Shown: positions 462 through 27,821 of the stretch, piece by piece
Layout: every line of letters starts with the position of its first letter
Numbering within the stretch: position 1 is the first letter of the stretch
Source: a cyanobacterium endosymbiont of Epithemia turgida isolate EtSB Lake Yunoko
Lineage (GTDB): Bacteria; Cyanobacteriota; Cyanobacteriia; Cyanobacteriales; Microcystaceae
DNA length: 32,000 nt
Reading direction: 5' to 3'
Assembly (NCBI RefSeq): GCF_000829235.1
Contig: NZ_AP012549.1
Location: 2,400,001 to 2,432,000, forward strand
Notes under the pieces: model-generated
Seen by the model: only the letters and a program-made list of their open reading frames with translations
What the model was told of the DNA's origin: nothing
Databases searched by the model: none
Made by a program: the position numbers and the translations under genes

Positions 462-1883
462 TTAGACATCATAGTATAAGGCAAACTCATAAGGATGAGG
501 GCGTAACCGTAAAGGGTTAACTTCATTATCAAGTTTGTATTCAATCCAACTCTCGATAAAATCTTTAGTGAAAACTCCCGTATTGGTTAAAAATGTCTGG
601 TCCTTTTCGAGGGCTTCTAGGGCTGCCTCAAGAGAGCTGGGAGTTGAAGGAATTTTACTTAACTCTTCAAAGGTAAGATCGTAGATATCCACATCTAAAG
701 ATGGACCTGGATCAATTTCATTCTTAATCCCATCAATTCCTGCACATAGCATCGCTGCAAACGCCAAATAAGGGTTGCATGTGGCATCAGGACATCGGAA
801 TTCCAACCGTTTAGCTTTAGGATTGGGTCCAGACAAAGGAATACGAATAGAAGCAGAACGGTTCCCTTGAGAATAAGCTAAGTTAACAGGAGCTTCAAAA
901 CCAGGAACTAGACGCTTATAAGAGTTGGTGCTGGGATTAGTAAACGCTAACAAAGCAGAAGCGTGTTTAAGGATACCACCAATGTAATTTAAAGCCATTT
1001 TGCTCAAATCTGCGTAACCGTTCCCCCAGAATAGTGGTTGCCCATCTTTCCAGATAGATTGGTGAGTGTGCATGCCAGAACCATTGTCATTAAACAAGGG
1101 TTTGGGCATAAACGTCACGGTTTTACCATATTTCCTAGCAACATTTTTTACGACATATTTGTAGGTCATCAAATAGTCTGCCGCTTCAACGAGGGTAGCA
1201 AAGCGAAAACCTAATTCGTTTTGTCCTCCTGTAGCTACTTCGTGATGGTGTTTCTCAATTGGAACTCCACATTTAGCCATAGTTAGCAGCATTTCTGTCC
1301 GCATATCCTGTAGAGTATCTGTCGGGGGTACAGGAAAGTAACCCTGTTTGTAGCCAGGTTTATAGGCGAGGTTTCCACCCTCCTCTTTACGTCCCGTATT
1401 CCAGCGTCCTTCTACACTGTCTAGGTAGTAATATCCTTTATTCTCAGTTTGGTCAAAACGAACATCATCGAAGACAAAGAATTCAGCTTCAGGTCCAAAA
1501 AAAGCAGTATCGCCAATTCCCGTAGTTTTGAGAAATTCAACCGCTTTAGCAGCAATGGTACGAGGATCGCGGCCGTACCATTCTCCTGTACGAGGTTCCT
1601 TAATACTACAAATTATACTAAGGGTAGGTTCTTCACAAAAGGGGTCGATCCAAGCCGTTGTCGGCTCGGGAATCATGACCATATCAGACTCGTTGATGGC
1701 TTTCCACCCCCGAATACTCGAACCGTCGAAGGGAACCCCATCGACAAAAGAACTTTCGTCAATTTGATTGTAGTAGAATGAACAATGTTGCCAAATACCT
1801 GGGGTATCAATGAATTTCAGGTCAACAATTTTTATGTTGTTGTCTTGAACTATTTTCAAGACGTCTTGAGGGGTTTTAGCCAT
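462..1883 (-). CDS. glnA: Glutamine synthetase type I
   Basis: 473-aa ORF with GS-I hallmarks along its whole length ([38 protein letters not shown]). An AGGAG Shine-Dalgarno lies 7 nt upstream of the ATG (plus-strand CTCCT at 1891-1895). Confidence 0.97.
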
Positions 1884-1919
1884 GGACAGACTCCTATTTT
1901 ATTCAGCCTCAAACCACCA

Positions 1920-1961
1920 ACCCTAAAGATAGGTCACAAGATATTTTGTATTCCATGATAC
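1920..1961 (-). promoter_or_regulatory. NtcA-type (class II) promoter of glnA: GTA-N8-TAC box plus -10 element
   Basis: GTATTCCATGATAC at 1948-1961 fits the GTA-N8-TAC NtcA consensus. Exactly 22 nt further on the minus strand lies TAGGGT (1925-1920), which fits the TAN3T -10 consensus. This places the start site about 30 nt upstream of the glnA ATG. Confidence 0.7.
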
Positions 1962-2691
1962 AGGCATCCTTGTTTAAATCTGTAGATAATGCAAAGTTTT
2001 GAAGCTACTCTGCAACCTAAGTAGTCGGACATAAATGGACAACACTATGCTAACGCGAATTTGACAAGGTTTGAAAATATTTTTATTTTTCTTCTATTTC
2101 GCAGAGTATATTAATAACCGCCATAACCCCATTAACCCAATTTTGTCCCATCGGTAAATTGTTGACTGTCGAGGGAGCCTCTTTTAAATAAATAACAATT
2201 TTTTTCGCCTTTCACCTCATTGCTAATGATCTAATTACATTAACTCTATATTATGTTGTTATAGAAATTTTTTAAACTTCAATTAACTCATATAAATTCT
2301 TCTTTTTACTTTTTTTTAAAAAACACCATTACACTCAAATACAACATTAGTTAATCATAATTTTTATATCTAACTTTCATTAACATAAACTTTGAATTTA
2401 TGGTAATTGATTTTAAATCAATAAGGTATTATAATAGGTTATTAATTTAAACCTCTATTTAGATAAAAAACCTAAATTTTTTTAACAAGATATTGCAATA
2501 TTTTAACATAATTATTGTTTTAAAAAAATAACTTAGGCGGTCAATTCAAATAAAGATTTGTCCTTATGAGATGATAGATAAGGAAAAAAACACTAAACTT
2601 TATAGTAGGCTATAAAACATTGTTGACGTAATTATTATCTAATTAAAAATTATGATCTTACCGTACGTTATATGATAGGGATCAGAACGCA

Positions 2692-2808
2692 ATGAATAGG
2701 CTTAAAGACTATTATTTGCCTGATATAGCTTCTATCAGTGCGGCTGCGGTTGTTAATGCCAATTTTCCTGAAGTTCTAAGACAGGTGAGACTTAGATTAT
2801 TTGAATAG
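2692..2808 (+). pseudogene. apcA: Phycobiliprotein relic (apcA-like, central helix region only)
   Basis: Frame reads ..NAMNRLKDYYLPDIASISAAAVVNANFPEVLRQVRLRLFE*. It aligns with the phycobiliprotein core [28 protein letters not shown]. The chromophore-Cys position is substituted and only about 40 codons remain, with stops on both sides. Confidence 0.5.
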
Positions 2809-2877
2809 GTGTCTTAATTAGTTTTTTCTGAAGTAAATACTTATACTAATCTTTCTTATTCAGCTTTTCTAGAGTAA

Positions 2878-3129
2878 ATAGACTATTCTCTACGCTATGC
2901 TAGTTATGCTTTAGCAGAGGGTGAGTACAATGTTCTTGATAAAGGGATATTGCGAGAGTGGCGCAAAACCTATAACTTCTTGAGAGTTCTCATTATCTCA
3001 AAAATCAAGGAAATCCAAATTATGAAAGACATGGTAAAAACCATAATGGCTGATACTGGGATTAAAGATGTCTCATTTAATAATTTTTTTGCTCACAGAG
3101 CTCTTGATATTAGTGAAATTTCTGTTTAA
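2878..3129 (+). pseudogene. apcB: Allophycocyanin beta-subunit relic (C-terminal half)
   Basis: The frame opens right after a TAA with no start codon. It reads DYSLRYASYALAEGEYNVLDKGILREWRKTYNFLRVLIISKIKEIQIMKDMVKTIMADTGIKDVSFNNFFAHRALDISEISV*. This is collinear with ApcB [76 protein letters not shown]. The N-terminal ~85 codons, including the bilin-binding Cys, are missing. Confidence 0.75.
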
Positions 3130-3183
3130 GTTCGTTGAAAATTAATAAGATTCTTAGAGACGATCACTATTCTTCAGTCAACA

Positions 3184-3309
3184 GTGATTACTTCTCTAAA
3201 TCAAAAAAGATTGTTAGGATGTAGACTTAGTGTAACTAAAATTATTCGAGAAGCACCCAGTTTGGACATAATGAGTATAATACCATCTATGGGAGTTAAA
3301 CTAAAACTA
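3184..3309 (+). pseudogene. apcC: Possible apcC (small core linker) relic read through into clpS
   Basis: The upstream extension of the clpS ORF (NQKRLLGCRLSVTKIIREAPSLDIMSIIPSMGVKLKL) loosely parallels ApcC TQRELQNTYFTKLVPYENWFREQQRIMKMGGKIVKVEL, with internal deletions. Its position after the apcA/apcB relics matches apcABC operon order. Confidence 0.35.
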
Positions 3310-3603
3310 ATGATGGCTGTAGCCTCGGTTACCCCCAAGGGGTCAACCTCAGTTATACGGAATGTTTACCCTAACTATAAAGTTATAGTACTTAATGATA
3401 ATTTCAATACCTTTGAGCATGTTGCTAACTGCTTAATGAAGTATATACCGAACATGACTGGTGATCGTGCTTGGGAACTAACACACCAAGTTCATTCTGA
3501 AGGACAGGCAATTGTCTGGGTCGGTCCTCAAGAGCCTGCCGAACTCTATCACCAGCAGTTACGGCGAGAAGGATTAACTATAGCTCCTTTAGAGGAAGCT
3601 TAA
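3310..3603 (+). CDS. clpS: ATP-dependent Clp protease adaptor ClpS (cyanobacterial ClpS2 type)
   Basis: YPNYKVIVLNDNFNTFEHVANCLMKYIPNMTGDRAWELTHQVHSEGQAIVWVGPQEPAELYHQQLRREGLTIAPLE is a full ClpS core. I prefer the ATG at 3310 (97 aa) to the GTG at 3184 given in the ORF track, because the extension looks like a decayed upstream gene. Confidence 0.9.
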   Translation: MMAVASVTPKGSTSVIRNVYPNYKVIVLNDNFNTFEHVANCLMKYIPNMTGDRAWELTHQVHSEGQAIVWVGPQEPAELYHQQLRREGLTIAPLEEA

Positions 3604-3604
3604 G

Positions 3605-3937
3605 ATGATGAACAAATCTAAAGGACGGCTTGTTTGGAATCATTCAACTCACCTTCAAGGACTGATTCCTATCCTTGAAAAGTTGATTAATTGCACTGGA
3701 ATTACTACGGTTACTCCCGGGGTAATCAGTTGTTCTAAGAGTCACTATCCTTATTTAAAGTTACGGATATCTGTTCCCGTTCGTGGCGGTTATAAGGTGA
3801 TCGCAAGACAAGGAAAAACAGTTCAAGAAGTATTTATCGTTACAAAGTTAAGTCGTCAAGAATTAGAAACTGCTATTAACACAATTATTGAATTAAAGTT
3901 TAATAGAAAAAATAACACTCTTCACATAAGTCGATAA
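3605..3937 (+). CDS. Conserved hypothetical protein, translationally coupled to clpS
   Basis: 110-aa ORF starting 1 nt after the clpS stop. Its composition is gene-like rather than spacer-like. It resembles small conserved cyanobacterial proteins (RLVWNHSTHLQGLIPILEKL..GITTVTPGVI..YLKLRISVPVRGGYKVIARQGKTVQEVFIVT), but I cannot name the family with certainty. Confidence 0.6.
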   Translation: MMNKSKGRLVWNHSTHLQGLIPILEKLINCTGITTVTPGVISCSKSHYPYLKLRISVPVRGGYKVIARQGKTVQEVFIVTKLSRQELETAINTIIELKFNRKNNTLHISR

Positions 3938-5318
3938 CGTTCAGTAGTGTTTCATAATATAGATAGTTATAAATTATTCTAAACTAGTAACTCTGACGAC
4001 TTCGGCATTAAAAATTGAGTTTTAACCCACTATGGGATAATTGACATTGAACCTGATTTTTGAATCATAAATATCAGTAAGAATTACTGAGACAACTTAA
4101 CTTTTCATTTGACAAATTAGTAATTGTCTATTTACTGCAATTACTAATTTTTTTTGGCAAGGACTATAAGCTCGACTTTAGGAAATATAACAGTCGTGTT
4201 TTCTGCTTAATTTATGTTTACAACTATATTTTCGGGCCCGGTGATAATATTACTCTGATCCAGATAGAATTATAGAAGCTCACAGTTAACTAAAGAATTA
4301 AAGCTAAAATAATTTTAGCTTTATTTAAAATTTTTGCAAAGACGAGGTTATTCATAGTAAGAAAAGATTATTCATTATCAATAAAAATCACCTTCTTTAA
4401 GAAGAGGACTGATCATGATTACCTTTTGCGTGAGATTTTAGTTTATTACATTAGTTAAATAGGATTTATATTCCAATAAATTTATGACAATCTTATGCAT
4501 TTTTATTTTAGACTATTTCCCTTCTATATATGTTTAGTCCATAACTAAAAAACACTAGGATTTTATCCTAAGTGTGATTTGATAACTTATATTACTGCTA
4601 TTATCAATTGATATGGATCTTAAACGTTTTACCGACTAACCAATAATTAATCTAAATTTTATATTTAAATTTTTAAAAAAAGAGAATAATTAGAGAATAA
4701 ACCTGTTAATTTAACCTTAATTAATTTATTGGTATAATTTATTTTTTATGTATTTAAATTGGATTAATAAGTAGCACAATATTTATTACAAATAATATCA
4801 ATATATAAATAAAAATCTTAAATATTAAATGAAATTATTATACTTATATACAACTATGATAGTGATTACTTTTATTGGTATTAATCTACAAAAATAAATA
4901 TGATTTTTAATAAAAATTTTATTAAACCTAAGAAATTGACATGTGTTATTTAACACAATTTTTTATATATCAAACATAATATATAAATATATAGTATATA
5001 CATAAATATAATTTTTATATAACTTCATGATAGTTACTAATTAAACTAAATATAAGCAATATACCCATATCTAAAATTAGATTATAGAGAAAAATCAGTA
5101 ACTAACTTTTAGTTTAGAGATTAAGCCATTCCTGGTCATAAAAATAAAAATTTAGTTAATTCTCAATTTATTGCACAAAGAAGTTCAATTGAAACAACAT
5201 CAACAAAGTATAGAATTTCTAAAATAAGTAGATAAACAATAGAATTAATTGAATGTATTTATAAGCTTATTAAGCTGTACAGGTGTAATTAATATATGAT
5301 ACAGTGCATTAAATAAAT

Positions 5319-8758: not shown

Positions 8759-9931
8759 AGTTGGCTTTAATGTATTTATCTTAGTGAAGATAAATTATAA
8801 GATAATTTATCTTTAACCTCAATTTTTAAAATCTAATCTATAAAGTATAACCCGTCAGGTAAATATTTTTTGATAAAATTTTCTAGCATTAAATAATTGA
8901 AGTTAGCGATCATTTTAATTGTCGATTTCCAAATATAAAATAATTAGCTTGACTCTAATTAAAATGTTAAATATATAAAAATATAACTCTTCTATACTAA
9001 AGATGATGTATCTATGATTAGTAATTAATGACTTCTAATATTTTTATTATAACTGCGTTATTCAATTCCATAAATTTGGCTATTACAGAAATATTTGCAA
9101 CGAGCATACAATTTAACTCACTCCATATATAAGTCATATTTTTTCTGAACAATCCTTCTCATTTAGTCTTTTTTATAGGGTTTTTTATAAAAATTAATTA
9201 CCTTTCAAAGAAACTCTATCTTTGATCGGTACATTACATAAAAATCTTAATATTTAAAATATCTATTTATGAGATAAGTAAAGCTCTCTACATATTTATC
9301 TAAAAATTCTATTTATAAAAGGTAAAAATAGAACTGTATTTCGTATGTATTAATTCAAATTTTCTGACTTAATTTATTGTTCCTAAAAAATTACAATATT
9401 GACTCCTTATTTTCTAGTTATTTAGTCAATAAAGTATTTATAGTTTCATTGCAATAATTAAATATTTATATATTATTATGACTAATTAGATAAAAATCTG
9501 TTTATATATTAAATATAGTTTTAATCTATAAAGTTGGGGCATTAAAACGTTATAATCATTATTAATCTACTATCTACATCTGTAGAAGATCTTAAGATTA
9601 CAGTCCCAACAAAAACCATAGTTAATTAATGACCCTGAATTGACAAGATTACCGACTATATAAATATTTTTTAATATATAAGCTATAGGTCATTGATACA
9701 AATACACAATTGATAATACAGGTGCAATACGTAATAAATTCATTTTGCGATTCCATTTGGTTACACTAAAGTATTAGCGCCCAAACTATTCTGCAGAATT
9801 TAACTTGTCGATAAAAAACTTCCTGGAAAAATCTTAGAACAGCTCGTGTAAAAATCCTTAAAGTATAAGGCAGGACTTGACCAATTAACGATATAGTGAA
9901 CATCAGAACAATTTTTCGTTAGGCTACCTCG

Positions 9932-18530: not shown

Positions 18531-19154
18531 AAGTTAATCAGTAATCAATGTTAAACATAATAATCAACTACAGACGAAGACTTAATTAGACTAGGAACAA
18601 TTATCCCAAAAGTAACTAAATATCTTCAAAAAAGCAATCTTTATTTTTTAGCTTAACTTTTTATAGTCAAAAAACACCTTATTTGCAGGACTCTACTATA
18701 ACGCGTTTTTAAAAACTGTTATTTCTAGCACACTTTGCTGATTTTTAAAATATCATTATGACTGGGGAGACACAAAAAAAATGTTCTTTTTTTAAAGAAA
18801 ATTATTTTTATTTAAATATTAAAATTATGGCCATAAGCATAGGATTTATATCCTAAAAATTTTTGAAAAGAAATAGTTATTTTTATAGTTTTAATTGATA
18901 CTAATAAAATTATTGGTAATGTATCAATTCTTTTCTTTATCGATGTGAGTATTCCAATTTTTATTATCCTTGTTTGGAGGGATAAAGAAAAGAAGCAGAT
19001 AAAACCTATAATTTACTGTTGAGCTAATTTTATCTTAATTAAGATCTTAATATACCATTAAAATATATTTTTTTAGGGAGAAAAGTCTGGTGTTCTAGTG
19101 TAGAAAAATACGATTGATTATGCTAGGATAAGTCCTAGTTTTAGGAAAGTACCA

Positions 19155-19337
19155 ATGAACCAAGATACTATTCGGGAAAAAGTGAAAGCCATCGAAGGTG
19201 AGAGAGAATTTTTAGTCCAACTTCTCAATAAACCAGATTTAGGAATTTTGAGTATCGATGTCAAGCAGGCTATTGAAGAACTTGATGAGTTAATTGATGA
19301 ATTTGAATTTACTTTTCCGGAAAAAAATATGAATTAA
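19155..19337 (+). CDS. Small acidic hypothetical protein (60 aa)
   Basis: The ORF has gene-like rather than spacer-like composition, a coiled-coil-like sequence (IREKVKAIEGEREFLVQLL...AIEELDELIDEF) and AGGAAAG upstream of the ATG. A palindromic terminator-like element follows it. Confidence 0.5.
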   Translation: MNQDTIREKVKAIEGEREFLVQLLNKPDLGILSIDVKQAIEELDELIDEFEFTFPEKNMN

Positions 19338-19390
19338 ATCACTGGTATGGTAAACGAAAGTCAGAAAGGGCTTAAGTCCATGATATTTCA

Positions 19391-19417
19391 GAAAAGCTAT
19401 TTTAAAAATAGCTTTTC
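19391..19417. terminator. Perfect 27-bp palindrome, terminator-like, downstream of the 60-aa ORF
   Basis: GAAAAGCTATTTT A AAAATAGCTTTTC (13-bp arms), 54 nt after the stop at 19337. The U-run is embedded in the descending arm. Confidence 0.45.
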
Positions 19418-19539
19418 CTACTTACCTATGTAAATTTTAAATAAGGTTTTTTAAAAAAGCTCTCACAATTAATCAAAAGTCAATAAGTTATTTGTTTTAA
19501 CTTTTCTGAACTGAATGTGATTAGCTAGAAAATTAATAA

Positions 19540-19594
19540 TTTATAATTGAGTTATCTGAGCTATACTTCATGGCTCAGATAACTCAATTATAAA
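19540..19594. repeat. Perfect 22-bp inverted repeat with 11-nt loop (hairpin)
   Basis: TTTATAATTGAGTTATCTGAGC [TATACTTCATG] GCTCAGATAACTCAATTATAAA, verified base by base. The geometry (22/11/22, 55 nt) is the same as the hairpin at 16566-16620, but the sequence is unrelated. Confidence 0.9.
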
Positions 19595-20096
19595 AAAATC
19601 TTTACAAAATTATATTTCTTACAGAAGATAACTCTCAATATTTATTGAAATAACGTGACAACTAGTCTAGAAATATCATTTGTTTTGATACTCAAAACAA
19701 CTCAAACTTTGATTATTATAATTTTTTTAGTAAAAACTATCTTTGATGGTAATTAAAACTTTGATAAGTAGATGCTCTTAAATAAGTGTAAGATGGAAAA
19801 GTAATTAAATTAAAAGTGCTTACTAGATATCAACCTAACTAAAAATTAAGCTAACATAATTAAAAAATAAAGAATCATAAAAGTTGATTTATAACTAAAC
19901 AATTCCCTTCATAGGGAGAACAATAAAATAAAATTTATGTTGAAATACAAGAGGATAGAAAGATAGAAAAATTTAAGACTAAGTGAAGCTATTAAAAAAT
20001 ATAATTAAGACAATAATTTATCTAGTCACAAAACTTTATTATAAAAATAATACCTAATATAAGGATGTAAAATTATAGTCGATTTTAATTAGGTAG

Positions 20097-20148
20097 CTGA
20101 TGAAGACATAATAAGAGTAGATAAACTAACTAATTATGTCTTCATCAG
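20097..20148. repeat. Perfect 16-bp inverted repeat with 20-nt loop
   Basis: CTGATGAAGACATAAT ... ATTATGTCTTCATCAG, in the middle of an extremely AT-rich 1.8-kb spacer. Confidence 0.9.
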
Positions 20149-21150
20149 TTGCTAAATCAATCGTTTTATTGATAGGCTTCTTTAATTTACGAATATTTTT
20201 AGATATTAATTTAAAAATATATTTAAAGAATGGTTATTTTTAAAAAAATCAACTAAAAATATTGATTAATAAACTTCTTATGTTGAAAAAATTTACAATG
20301 TTAATATTTAAAATATAGCATTCAAAAATGAAACAAGTAAATAAAAACTAGAAATAATATTTAAAGGTAAAAATAAAGAATTATAAGGAAAAAACCTTCA
20401 GGTATTAATATAGTTAGTAACTGATAAATTTACTTTATTTTAAAATCGAAGTTAAATAACTTTAAAATACTGGTTAAAACCACAAAAATATAAGGTTTAT
20501 ATTAAAAGTCAATATGTTATTTTAAAACAATAAATATAACTTAAGTAAAAGATAAAAAAATCTAATTTATTAGATAATTAAATACTATATATTAAGACTA
20601 TTAAACTTAGTAAGTTGGTGTTAAAAACCTATATAATATTAGGCATTAGAAATAAATTTATTTTTTTACAAAAAAACAACTTAGGGACTATTAGAAAAAA
20701 TCAATTATAAATTAAAGTTGCCAAAAAAGATGATCAAAAGCAAAGCGTTTAGATTTAGAAGTTCTGTTAATTCTTACCTCCAAAATTTATCAAACTTACA
20801 TTTTATTAGTTAATTCTATATTGTTAGTTTTCCATAGCCAAAATTATATTATTTATTAATATAAAGACTAGTCATGAGAATGATATTAAATAAACTATAA
20901 TAAAAATTATTGTGCTTAGTAAAAAATAAATTAGTAAATTTTAAATAAAATAATTATGAGCAATTTACTACTTTAATTTTCATTAAATAGGTTATGTTTA
21001 AACTTACTAGAATTAGTTTGTTGACAAGTATAAACTTAGATATCTTTTGTTAAATAAATTAAGATAAAAAATTTGAAAATTATTTATTTTATAATATTAT
21101 TTTTTATTTTAATTACACTTTTTAAAAAATTAATAATAAACCTGAATTAG

Positions 21151-24814: not shown

Positions 24815-26279
24815 ACTAGCCTGTATATCATTTAAGTTAGATATTACCTAAGAAAAAAGATAGTTTTACTAAACTTAGAAAGGTTAACTGATAGCTAGGA
24901 ATACAAAACAAGGAATGGGGAACAGTAAAAATAAAAAATTAGAGAGATATTTAGATATAAATGATATTAGTGATCTTCAAGACTTAATACTTCAACAAAA
25001 AGGCGTGGATATTACTGAGAGATACAATTTAAAAACTAAAAATTTTTCAAAAACAAACTATATTGTATGGTTTACCTTTTTGGAAGAGGTATTACCTAAA
25101 TTAAAGCTAACATATCGGAAGGATACAGAAAACAATATAGGGGAGAATACATAAGATTTTTAGTTATAGTGTTAACTTAAGTTAAAGACGAGAATAATTC
25201 TTACTTTATTTAGACAGAAAAACATAATTTTATATTTCCTCGCTTTAAAAGTATTGGTTTTACCTGATAAGTTCAATAGAACTAAACAAATTAATAAAAC
25301 TATACTTCAAGACATTTACGAGTCATTTATTCTTAAGGATTACCAAAAATATTTTCTGTTTGATTTAGATGTGATTGAGTAACCATAACAATTTTCTTGA
25401 TCCTATTTTTGGCATAAAAAAACAGTATAATCTACCATTTTGGTTGCCAGTTTTATATCATTGGTGATGATGATATTCGTATATTTCTCTTTTAAATAAA
25501 CAATTAATTCTTTTACTTGATGAATATAAATTTTATAAAGAAAGAAAACAAGTTCATTGATTTAAATAAGTTCTCTTTTAACACAACCAATGTGAACAAT
25601 ATATAACTCTTGTTTTTTCTACTAAAAAAGAGAGTTTTTTACTAACATGTCTTCTAAAATATTATTAATTATTACACTATAGACAATATTTTTCTAAATC
25701 CAGGAGTCGGGCATTGACAGATAAACTTACTTAAATGCGGTCTATCTAAAAATATAAAGTAATCACTAAAAACTAAAAAGTAAAAAACCATTATAACTTT
25801 TACTAATAAATCAATGGCTAAGTAATATTAAAATTTTTATACTTGGTATCCGATTGTTGAATCTTAATATTTAGGATGTAATAGTTTACCCGAGATATTT
25901 AATAATTTATCTCATGATCAAGAGTTATATTTAATGATAGTAATAGTTAAAACTTGATAAGTCTCAATCAAAGAAGTAGAATATTATTCGTTTAAAAGTT
26001 TAGAGATAATCGAGTAATTTTTAGTTACTGTAACTATACGATGCTCACTTTATCTATCCTAAGCTAGTCAATACATATTTTACGTAATTTATTTTTTAAA
26101 TGCGCATTTCTCAAATCTATTTAAATCTCCTAAATCAGAAAAATAATAATTAAGTTTAAAAATATAAGATATCAGTAAAGTCATCACAAACAATTCTATT
26201 GTAACTTTCCATCTACACTCATAATCAAACATTATATTCACAATATATAGACTAAAAAAATAGATAAAAATTTAAAATC

Positions 26280-27770
26280 TTTACTTCATCTATCCTATTC
26301 TAAGTTGTATTTTTATCAGCTCAAATTCAGTAAAATTTATACCTCTAATGTAGAAGCATGACGCACTTTCCCAGAAGAGAATAAAATCTCCCCTAAACTG
26401 CTCAAATAATCGTCAATTATTTGGGCAGTACTAGAGCCGATAAAGAGCGTCCTTACATGACGTATTTTTTAAATAAAATTTTAAGATTTAGCCAAAGCTA
26501 ATATTAAAGTACTGTGAAAAGAATTGATTGATAATGGACACGGCTTGTTCTAAAGAATCCACTACAACAATTAATCGATCGTAAGAGATCATCTTTGCAC
26601 TGAGAACTCCTGAGAAATATTCATCAGATTTATAAATGACTATCTTCTGTAGCATTGTGCCTCAAGTCACATCAGGAGTCAACAAAATCACTACGTTTGT
26701 GGACTCTTGTTCTATTTATACGAATAGAGTGCCCCAATATAGTTGAGGTTAGCCTTGCGCTCAGCAATGATTACTAAGTCAGAAATATCAAAAGATGTAC
26801 CAATAGCTACCGCTCCATAAACTGTTTTTTCGCCAACGTAACTTCGAGATCTCCTATTCCTGTAATGACTTCTACTCTTGGGAAAGTTTTAGTTCCGTAG
26901 GATAAAATGACAATAGCTGCTGTTTTTGCCAACCCTGTAAATTCTCTTGATTCCTATTTCTTGAGTGAGCGGCTGCCAAAATTAAGGGATAAATTTTTTC
27001 AAAAATATTAGGGGAAGTTATCACTATAGTTAGAAAACCTTGGCGACTTTTGCGAGGATGGCTTGAGTCAAAAACCCACTGATTTGAGGACATAAATCAC
27101 TCTCAATATAAGGTTCGGCTCCTTTAAAATGCTGGAACAACTCAAATTCTTGAGACTAGTTTTAATTGATGAAACTGGAGTTAAGCTAGCCATAACTTGT
27201 AATTTTACTAAAGCAACTAAGGGAAAATACGTTTATAAGGAATATATCAGTAGAGGAAGAAATATTGTCTGAAATTGGGACGATCACTACGTCGGTTTTT
27301 TGAATCCTTTTACTTTTTAAAAATAGATAAATCTAAAAAAATTTTTTGCACTGATAAAATAGAAGTTCTAATATGATTAAATATAGCCGGTGACTGTTGT
27401 AGTTATAGTTAAGTTGTTAACTCGTAAAACAACAACAAAAGTTGGGGAACTGATGGAATCTATAGAAGCAAAAGTCGTGTTCCTATTTCCTCAGTAGCTA
27501 TTAGTCATAAATTAGAAAACATTAACAAATTAAATGATCCTCTAACTCTAGAGTCCTTAATCAAACTCTCAATAAATCAATTGATTGAGCAACTGATGAA
27601 TACATAATTTACCAGTGTATCCACTTCTGCTATTACCAAGTTACCCAGTTAGAAACCGCTATAAAAACCAAAATCTGCATCGCTTTACCGCCGGTTCCGA
27701 CGAGTAAAAATAGCCGAACCAACTCTCACTCCAAAGCTTTGTCTGTTTCTTTAGTTCATTTTTCTGCTTG
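26280..27770 (-). pseudogene. hisD: Histidinol dehydrogenase relic, near full length, multiply frameshifted and split by an IS remnant
   Basis: Minus-strand fragments lie in different frames. Each is listed with the HisD segment it matches: (1) FKGAEPYIESDLCPQISGFLTQAILAKVAKVF, cf. LYVPGG.AAYPSSVLMNAIPAKVAGV. (2) PLILAAAHSRNRNQ and GLAKTAAIVILSYGTKTFPRVEVITGIGDLEVTLAKK, cf. GGAQAIAALAYGTETIPKVD.I.GPGNIYVTLAKK. (3) VYGAVAIGTSFDISDLVIIAERKAN, cf. V.G.VGID..AGPSEVL.IADE.AN. (4) RLIVVVDSLEQAVSIINQF, cf. .I.VDSLEEA.ELSN. (5) TLFIGSSTAQIIDDYLSSLGEILFSSGKVRHAS, cf. AIFLG..TPEA.GDY.AGPNH.LPTSG.AR..S. N-terminal traces (YTGKL cf. YT.KFD, RFHQ cf. AFH.Q) lie at 27400-27700. One frameshift coincides with a T6 run at 26825-26830. 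The ORF-track entry 26872..27093 is one frame of this relic. Confidence 0.85.
27128..27385 (+). mobile_element. Degraded IS630-family (DDE) transposase fragment inserted in hisD
   Basis: Plus-strand fragments: MLEQLKFLRLVLIDETGVKLAITCNFTKATKGKYVYKEYISRGRNI, then after a frameshift LSEIGTITTSVF, then FESFYFLK...KIEVLI*LN. These follow the IS630 pattern ..lvFiDEsG.n..m.r.ygra.kG.r......rg.n.tligal...G...F..fl......vlvmDN. Only about 85 of ~340 codons remain and no terminal repeats are recognisable. Confidence 0.6.
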
Positions 27771-27821
27771 ACTCCCGATGCTTTTTCAATAAAGATACCA
27801 TAACAATGGTACCACTTAACT

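Follow-up and report, generated by a model that had tools for sequence, protein, structure and literature searches.

The DNA directly upstream of clpS in the endosymbiont of Epithemia turgida (EtSB) very probably carries the remains of one monocistronic gene, apcF, whose product, the allophycocyanin beta-18 subunit, is a minor component of the phycobilisome core. Within the window (the whole stretch of 32 kb that was analysed), positions 2625-3129 are read here, with a probability of roughly 0.93, as a unitary apcF pseudogene in a non-photosynthetic endosymbiont. The original prediction, made from the sequence alone, had seen in this region about 620 bp left of an apcA-apcB-apcC operon of about 1.4 kb; what is left amounts to 505 nt of a single gene of 510 nt. 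The features of the locus are collected in Table 1, in which SB stands for spheroid body.

Table 1. Features at the apcF locus of EtSB, numbered from the first nucleotide of the window; lesions are given relative to SU2 apcF.
Feature	Position	Strand	Basis
glnA (ETSB_1658), intact, divergent from the apcF relic	462..1883	-	Exact match to BAP18375.1; tag from PMC12903740 Table S2A
What is left of the DNA preceding apcF (promoter / 5' leader)	2527..2624	+	Alignable to SU2; 21/80 aligned positions differ between EtSB and SU2
23-nt deletion (GTTGGGAGAAAACTTTAATGCGA in SU2); ribosome-binding site, ATG and codon 2 lost	junction 2624/2625	+	Also in L083 (E. adnata-type SB) and L082 (Rhopalodia SB)
Probable apcF (allophycocyanin beta-18 subunit) pseudogene, codons 3-170	2625..3129	+	tblastn with SU2 ApcF, PDB matches, DNA alignment
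1-nt deletion, frameshift, codon 7	after 2636	+	Alignment to SU2; tblastn needs two frames
5-nt insertion GATAG, frameshift	~2674-2678	+	Common to L083 and L082
In-frame stop TAG, codon 62 (GAA in SU2)	2806..2808	+	TAG in L083, TAA in Rhopalodia SB L082; first-position T common
In-frame stop TAA, codon 65, EtSB-specific	2815..2817	+	GAA in L083 and L082
Codon 82 TGT to TTT, bilin-attachment Cys to Phe	2866..2868	+	TTT in 4/4 endosymbiont copies; TGT in SU2 and Crocosphaera
In-frame stop TAA, codon 85 (GAC in SU2)	2875..2877	+	TAA in Epithemia SBs, TAT in Rhopalodia SBs
3-nt in-frame deletion, codon 153	junction 3078/3079	+	Alignment to SU2
apcF-clpS intergenic spacer, 180 nt	3130..3309	+	SU2, with intact apcF: same length, aligns base for base
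clpS (ETSB_1660), intact, 97 residues	3310..3603	+	NCBIfam NF009563, E 2.2e-54, full model; exact match to WP_044107686.1 / BAP18376.1
DUF2103 gene (ETSB_1661), intact	3605..3937	+	Pfam PF09876, E 1.4e-21; exact match to WP_044107216.1

Genome setting and synteny

The GlnA, ClpS and DUF2103 proteins encoded around the relic match EtSB exactly, and the window therefore belongs to the spheroid body (diazoplast) genome of Epithemia turgida; for the last of the three, BAP18377.1 corresponds to ETSB_1661 and is a 109-aa member of the WP_044107216.1 cluster. EtSB is a diatom endosymbiont in which photosynthesis has been entirely lost, and its pseudogenes have been catalogued by tBLASTn (PMC5638926). 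Some 14.1 of the 32 kb of the window lie outside open reading frames of at least 90 residues, with a G+C content of 22-37% there, and a tblastn comparison with 2,567 open reading frames from the fetched loci of relatives detected only one further relic in the window. Additionally, no Rfam family and no tRNA was found anywhere in the window, and in a consensus scan of positions 1850-3400 promoter-like sites were not in excess and no terminator was detected.

The closest relatives of EtSB were found by a ClpS scan of species-representative genomes. The unicellular cyanobacterium SU2 (L001), reported to be closer to the spheroid bodies than any other free-living relative (PMC11131595; bioRxiv 10.64898/2026.03.19.712447), carries glnA on the minus strand followed on the plus strand by an intact apcF of 169 codons (9310-9819 of that locus), clpS and the DUF2103 gene; the 169-codon protein matches the Synechocystis beta-18 subunit (ApcF, PDB 7sc7 chain AK) over its full length (E 1.1e-84). 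A free-living Crocosphaera MAG (L007) likewise has an intact apcF, at 9151-9660, directly upstream of clpS. In Rippkaea orientalis PCC 8802, apcF (Cyan8802-0836) adjoins glnA (0837), apcA, apcB and apcC (Cyan8802-3315 to 3313) occupy a locus unrelated to apcF, and clpS is gene 1753 (PMC12903740 Table S2A). The idea that clpS follows apcC in relatives is thus contradicted by the gene order: SU2 and Crocosphaera have apcF and then clpS, and the apcABC genes of PCC 8802 lie elsewhere. Between glnA and apcF, EtSB has 468 bp of additional, AT-rich DNA (2004-2471) for which SU2 offers no counterpart.

The existing annotation points to the same position. The tags ETSB_1658, 1660 and 1661 denote glnA, clpS and the DUF2103 gene, and the corresponding protein accessions run without a break (BAP18375 to BAP18377). 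Because a tag is skipped and no accession is, ETSB_1659 should be a feature without a protein between glnA and clpS; the depositors have probably already tagged the apcF relic as a pseudogene under this number. A gap of one tag between glnA and clpS was also present in four other endosymbiont annotations and absent in E. pelagica.

Identity of the relic

The phycobiliprotein-like coding sequence on the plus strand is real and far beyond chance, judging from the profile and alignment scores. Pfam PF00502 (Phycobilisome protein) matches positions 2878-3129 alone with E 1.5e-9; this frame-tolerant profile search had been set beforehand as the check on the relic call, and with a significant match the call of a phycobiliprotein relic directly upstream of clpS stands. 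On the translation joined across its stops, the same family matches as a single stretch spanning profile positions 15-139 of 155 (E 3.3e-16, 60.1 bits vs. a cut-off of 22.2). A tblastn search of the window with SU2 ApcF returned a single HSP for residues 20-169, in one frame at 2680-3126 (53% identity, E 3e-41); residues 8-19 were placed at 2639-2674, in a different frame.

These alignments bear directly on the number of genes. The original prediction had distinguished two fragments and assigned them to apcA and apcB. On the NCBIfam apcB model, fragment 1 occupies positions 19-60 and fragment 2 positions 85-167, and all pieces that were named share one reading frame, that of position 2602. Since the fragments fall on separate, non-overlapping stretches of one model and one protein in the same frame, they represent the N- and C-terminal parts of one gene; the supposed apcA is residues 20-62 of the very protein whose C-terminal part is fragment 2. 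A phycobiliprotein D-Y-Y-L-R helix had been ascribed to each fragment, a similarity that dissolves upon alignment: the "DYYL" at 2707-2718 falls on residues 29-32 of the N-terminal helices, which read DYFS in SU2, and the true DYYLRY helix (residues 87-92) is the "DYSLRY" of fragment 2.

The assignment to ApcF rests on comparison with proteins of known structure and on length. A frameshift-corrected, stop-masked conceptual translation of the relic was used as the phmmer query against the PDB. The seven best matches are all beta-18/ApcF-type core subunits of 169 residues (94-121 bits; E 2.7e-34 to 9e-26), with alignments to ApcF-type chains running from residue 9 to residue 169, whereas the best ordinary beta chain of 161-162 residues (ApcB-type) scored 80 bits (E ~1e-21), about 40 bits lower. 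The relic also keeps the ApcF-length C-terminal tail, with codons 169-170 (GTT TAA) conserved at 3124-3129; the stop TAA at 3127-3129 is conserved in all relatives. Fragment 2 therefore does reach its natural stop, as had been stated, but as the end of ApcF rather than of ApcB. Combined, the PF00502 domain, a greater closeness to ApcF than to ApcB, ApcA, ApcD or CpcB, the 169-codon length including the tail and the orthologous position are all found in the relic; an intact open reading frame, a start codon and Cys82, by which it would belong among functional ApcF proteins, are not.

Lesions

With SU2 apcF as the reference, eight disabling or damaging lesions were identified in EtSB (Table 1). 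From the alignment, the decay of apcF consisted of small lesions, with almost no length lost. The earlier description of what is missing was correct for the start codon, which is deleted together with the ribosome-binding site, and incorrect for the N-terminal halves, which are not lost, as the relic begins at 2625. The substitution at the bilin-binding cysteine was confirmed at codon 82. Assembly or sequencing error was considered as a source of the lesions and rejected, with the same lesions present in the independent assemblies L083, L084 and L082.

The spacer and the start of clpS

The interval between the relic and clpS had been interpreted as a third relic, matching the small core linker ApcC. 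Instead, it is an ordinary spacer. In its plus-strand frames, neither ApcC/CpcD nor any other family was matched in Pfam or NCBIfam at E <= 10, a search against the PDB gave no match at E <= 10, and the best Smith-Waterman score against three PDB-verified ApcC sequences (24) is that of shuffled DNA (mean 24.3; p ~0.5). The same interval had been invoked to explain the N-terminal extension of clpS. The extension is indeed spurious, the 139-codon open reading frame from GTG 3184 being a mechanical artefact and the ClpS model covering the 97-residue version from ATG 3310; an ApcC relic behind it left no signal.

The 5' part of the spacer (~3149-3202) is the counterpart of the apcF terminator, which is made up of a HIP1-type GCGATCGC hairpin and a T run behind it. 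Hairpin energies are -22.7 kcal/mol in SU2 (z -2.4), -25.2 in Crocosphaera (z -2.9) and -13.5 in EtSB (z -0.68), so that folding predicts a weakened apcF terminator hairpin in EtSB. A clpS-proximal block of 26 nt (3195-3220) is conserved with 0-1 mismatches across all endosymbiont loci and SU2. Overall, divergence is lower in the spacer than in the pseudogene (22/164 vs. 103/493; Fisher p 0.04), which fits a promoter or leader of clpS.

Age and mode of decay

The same locus was compared in two spheroid bodies of Rhopalodia (L081, L082), in one of E. adnata type (L083, L084) and in that of E. pelagica (L002); the 5' half of L081 is masked by N, and the 5' lesions in Rhopalodia rest on the single copy L082. 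Four lesions are common to the Epithemia and Rhopalodia copies, namely the 23-nt deletion, the 5-nt insertion, the T in codon 62 and Cys82Phe. As these lesions are common to both, the inactivation of apcF predates the split between the Epithemia and Rhopalodia endosymbionts. The spheroid body genome of E. pelagica is reported to be early-branching and smaller, and at its locus approximately the last 36 nt of apcF are left recognisable, plus the spacer. The shared lesions place the inactivation no further back than the ancestor of the freshwater endosymbionts sampled; in E. pelagica the informative region has been lost.

The pattern of substitution within the relic is that of a gene no longer under selection. 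Differences at codon positions 1/2/3 number 18/16/83 between the intact apcF genes of SU2 and Crocosphaera, and 33/31/39 between the relics of EtSB and the Rhopalodia spheroid body. The overall divergence between these two relics is 103/493 = 0.21, compared with 27/147 = 0.18 at the 4-fold sites of clpS, the DUF2103 gene and a CCA-enzyme-like gene, a figure that leaves out glnA. The lack of codon-position bias, together with a divergence close to the 4-fold-site rate, is the signature of neutral drift.

A simple course of events would account for these observations. With the reliance of the endosymbiont on the photosynthesis of its host, the selective value of apcF would have vanished; the gene would then have been disabled in an ancestor common to the freshwater Epithemia/Rhopalodia endosymbionts at least, and the dead gene would have drifted neutrally from that point. 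Its survival at near-full length may be owed only to the slow deletion of DNA in these endosymbiont genomes, most of apcF being gone in the marine E. pelagica spheroid body.

Alternative readings

Two alternatives concern the identity of the relic. That three relics of an apcA-apcB-apcC operon remain, with the N-terminal halves and about 800 bp deleted, is as good as refuted: fragment 1 does contain D-Y-Y-L and fragment 2 does match the NCBIfam apcB model (E 1.8e-15), yet the fragments are collinear in one protein and in the same frame. An apcA relic was likewise not seen, with no phycobiliprotein match in any frame of 1884-2640 in a six-frame Pfam search, nor was there an ApcC signal in 3130-3309; relatives, moreover, have a single apcF here, then a spacer of the same length, with apcABC located elsewhere in PCC 8802. 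A pseudogene of apcB or another beta-type paralogue is very improbable, if slightly less so than the operon. The apcB equivalog is the best NCBIfam match, and no ApcF-named NCBIfam family appears among the matches, even for the intact SU2 protein. That model, however, does not separate ApcB from ApcF, since intact ApcF also exceeds its cut-off (265 vs. 228 bits). The seven best PDB matches, all ApcF-type and with a margin of about 40 bits over the best ordinary beta chain, the ApcF-length tail kept to codon 169 and the intact 169-residue orthologue at the same SU2 locus, with its E of 1.1e-84 to 7sc7_AK, all argue against apcB and for apcF.

A third alternative accepts apcF and questions its uselessness: the dead gene could be kept as working non-coding DNA, for instance as a long clpS leader read from the old apcF promoter. 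Such co-option, in which the relic would serve clpS as a promoter region or transcribed leader and a weakened terminator would allow read-through, is very improbable, although it is the least improbable of the three. The near-full-length state of the relic in at least four endosymbiont lineages, an upstream region that can still be aligned to SU2 and a weakened terminator hairpin, which would favour read-through, are consistent with it. However, the divergence of the relic matches that of 4-fold sites (0.21 vs. 0.18) and exceeds that of the adjoining spacer, the E. pelagica spheroid body has lost nearly all of the relic yet keeps clpS, and low deletion rates account for retention (bioRxiv 10.64898/2026.03.19.712447). 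An apcF pseudogene decaying without function is the preferred reading, and no observation speaks against the call of a pseudogene.

Significance and comparison with known systems

The apcF relic is ordinary and expected, and the biological state that it reflects is essentially known; beyond correct annotation it has little importance, as the loss of photosynthesis and phycobilisome genes has been published repeatedly and slowly eroding gene remnants are known to fill these genomes. It offers a modest use as a neutral marker, the gene having died before the spheroid bodies of E. turgida / E. adnata and those of Rhopalodia separated. The series from SU2 (intact) through the freshwater spheroid bodies (a full-length wreck) to the E. 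pelagica spheroid body (~36 nt) illustrates a regime of slow deletion. Additionally, the case is a caution that, where a gene has decayed, a short motif likeness such as DYYL can be mistaken for the trace of additional copies that do not exist.

The state of the organism, which the original prediction had called striking for a cyanobacterium, is the already published state of EtSB (PMC5638926, PMC12903740). Its inference of a lost phycobilisome agrees with the published tables, which list the phycobilisome genes as absent and are the source, beyond the 32 kb analysed here, for the lack of intact apc/cpc genes elsewhere in the genome; the route proposed, decay of the apcABC operon, does not hold for this locus. 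In PMC12903740, 16 phycobiliprotein-related core cyanobacterial proteins are missing from all rhopalodiacean endosymbionts, the loss of antenna proteins is described as "no surprise", and apcF is marked "No-RE", i.e., without an orthologue in any rhopalodiacean endosymbiont. The tables of that study show apcF as absent ("--"), unlike rbcL, which appears as a bracketed broken gene. A description of the apcF relic itself was not found in the literature searched, and the supplements of PMC5638926 and PMC11131595 mention neither apcF nor allophycocyanin.

Among known systems, the apcABC operon shares with the relic the PF00502 superfamily and the cellular structure to which its products belong; unlike the operon, the relic consists of one phycobiliprotein frame, with no alpha-type and no CpcD/ApcC-type relic. 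The closest protein is ApcF itself: the relic is collinear with the Synechocystis subunit (slr1459, 7sc7 chain AK) over residues 9-169 (E 2.7e-34), with the same tail and stop, and it occupies the same position as SU2 apcF in the order glnA, apcF, clpS. Unlike ApcF, it has no start codon or ribosome-binding site, contains two frameshifts and three in-frame stops, has Phe in place of Cys82 and retains about 53% amino-acid identity to SU2 ApcF, and it cannot encode a functional subunit. Spheroid-body or diazoplast genomes hold more than 150 pseudogenes each (PMC12377750), and degraded pieces of genes lying between the intact ones are given as the reason for their low coding density (bioRxiv 10.64898/2026.03.19.712447). 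It is to the published pseudogenes of EtSB and RgSB (PMC5638926), with rbcL, rbcS and chlorophyll biosynthesis genes as documented examples among spheroid-body pseudogenes, that the relic compares best: it comes from the same genome and represents a dispensable photosynthesis-related gene, broken by stops and frameshifts and only slowly removed.

Gene erosion around the apcF relic

Downstream of clpS and the DUF2103 gene, the window holds a second gene relic (see table), that of a SlyD-like FKBP-type peptidyl-prolyl isomerase. The closest free-living relative, SU2, carries an intact 142-residue gene directly after DUF2103 (L001 10697-11125, minus strand), with which the relic aligns over 76 residues at 37% identity (E 2e-9). 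Within the aligned part, the reading frame meets two stop codons and there is a gap of 13 codons; the N-terminal half of the gene is not recognisable in the window.

Features of the window, by position
Feature	Position	Strand	Remarks
AT-rich stretch, 468 bp	2004-2471		between glnA and the apcF relic
26-nt block TCTAAATCAAAAAAGATTGTTAGGAT	3195-3220		~90-115 nt upstream of clpS
SlyD-like isomerase relic	3989-4177	minus	similarity to intact SU2 gene

The AT-rich stretch has no counterpart in SU2, where 13 bp occupy that place; it is also found in the E. adnata-type endosymbiont, and a six-frame protein-family search of it gave no signal. Across the window, about 44% of the sequence (14.1 kb) lies outside ORFs of at least 90 residues, with these gaps having a G+C content of 22-37% vs. 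32% for the entire window. Searches for tRNAs and Rfam families over the 32 kb found none, and the large gaps, e.g., 18531-21150 and 24815-27821, probably hold more unrecognisable gene wrecks.

Among the other endosymbionts, the loci from both Rhopalodia endosymbiont chromosomes contain long runs of N (L081 1-2514; L082 1366-2150) that mask glnA and, in L081, also the apcF relic over its 5' half; the 5' lesions of apcF in Rhopalodia are therefore documented by L082 only. In the E. pelagica endosymbiont (uoEpiScrs1), 693 bp (L002 9079-9772) stand in place of the apcF relic, without detectable similarity to window positions 2103-3093, and only ~36 nt of the apcF 3' end and the spacer are kept. 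At this site, the same erosion has gone further.

The clpS upstream region

Public annotations of the same or near-identical clpS genes place the start differently (window region 3184-3309), giving proteins of 97, 104, or 110 residues; the ClpS equivalog model matches the 97-residue form, starting at 3310. Upstream of this start, all six endosymbiont copies (the window and five loci) and SU2 carry TCTAAATCAAAAAAGATTGTTAGGAT with 0-1 mismatches; it was absent from the remaining 78 cyanobacterial clpS loci. The block is a candidate promoter or leader element of clpS.
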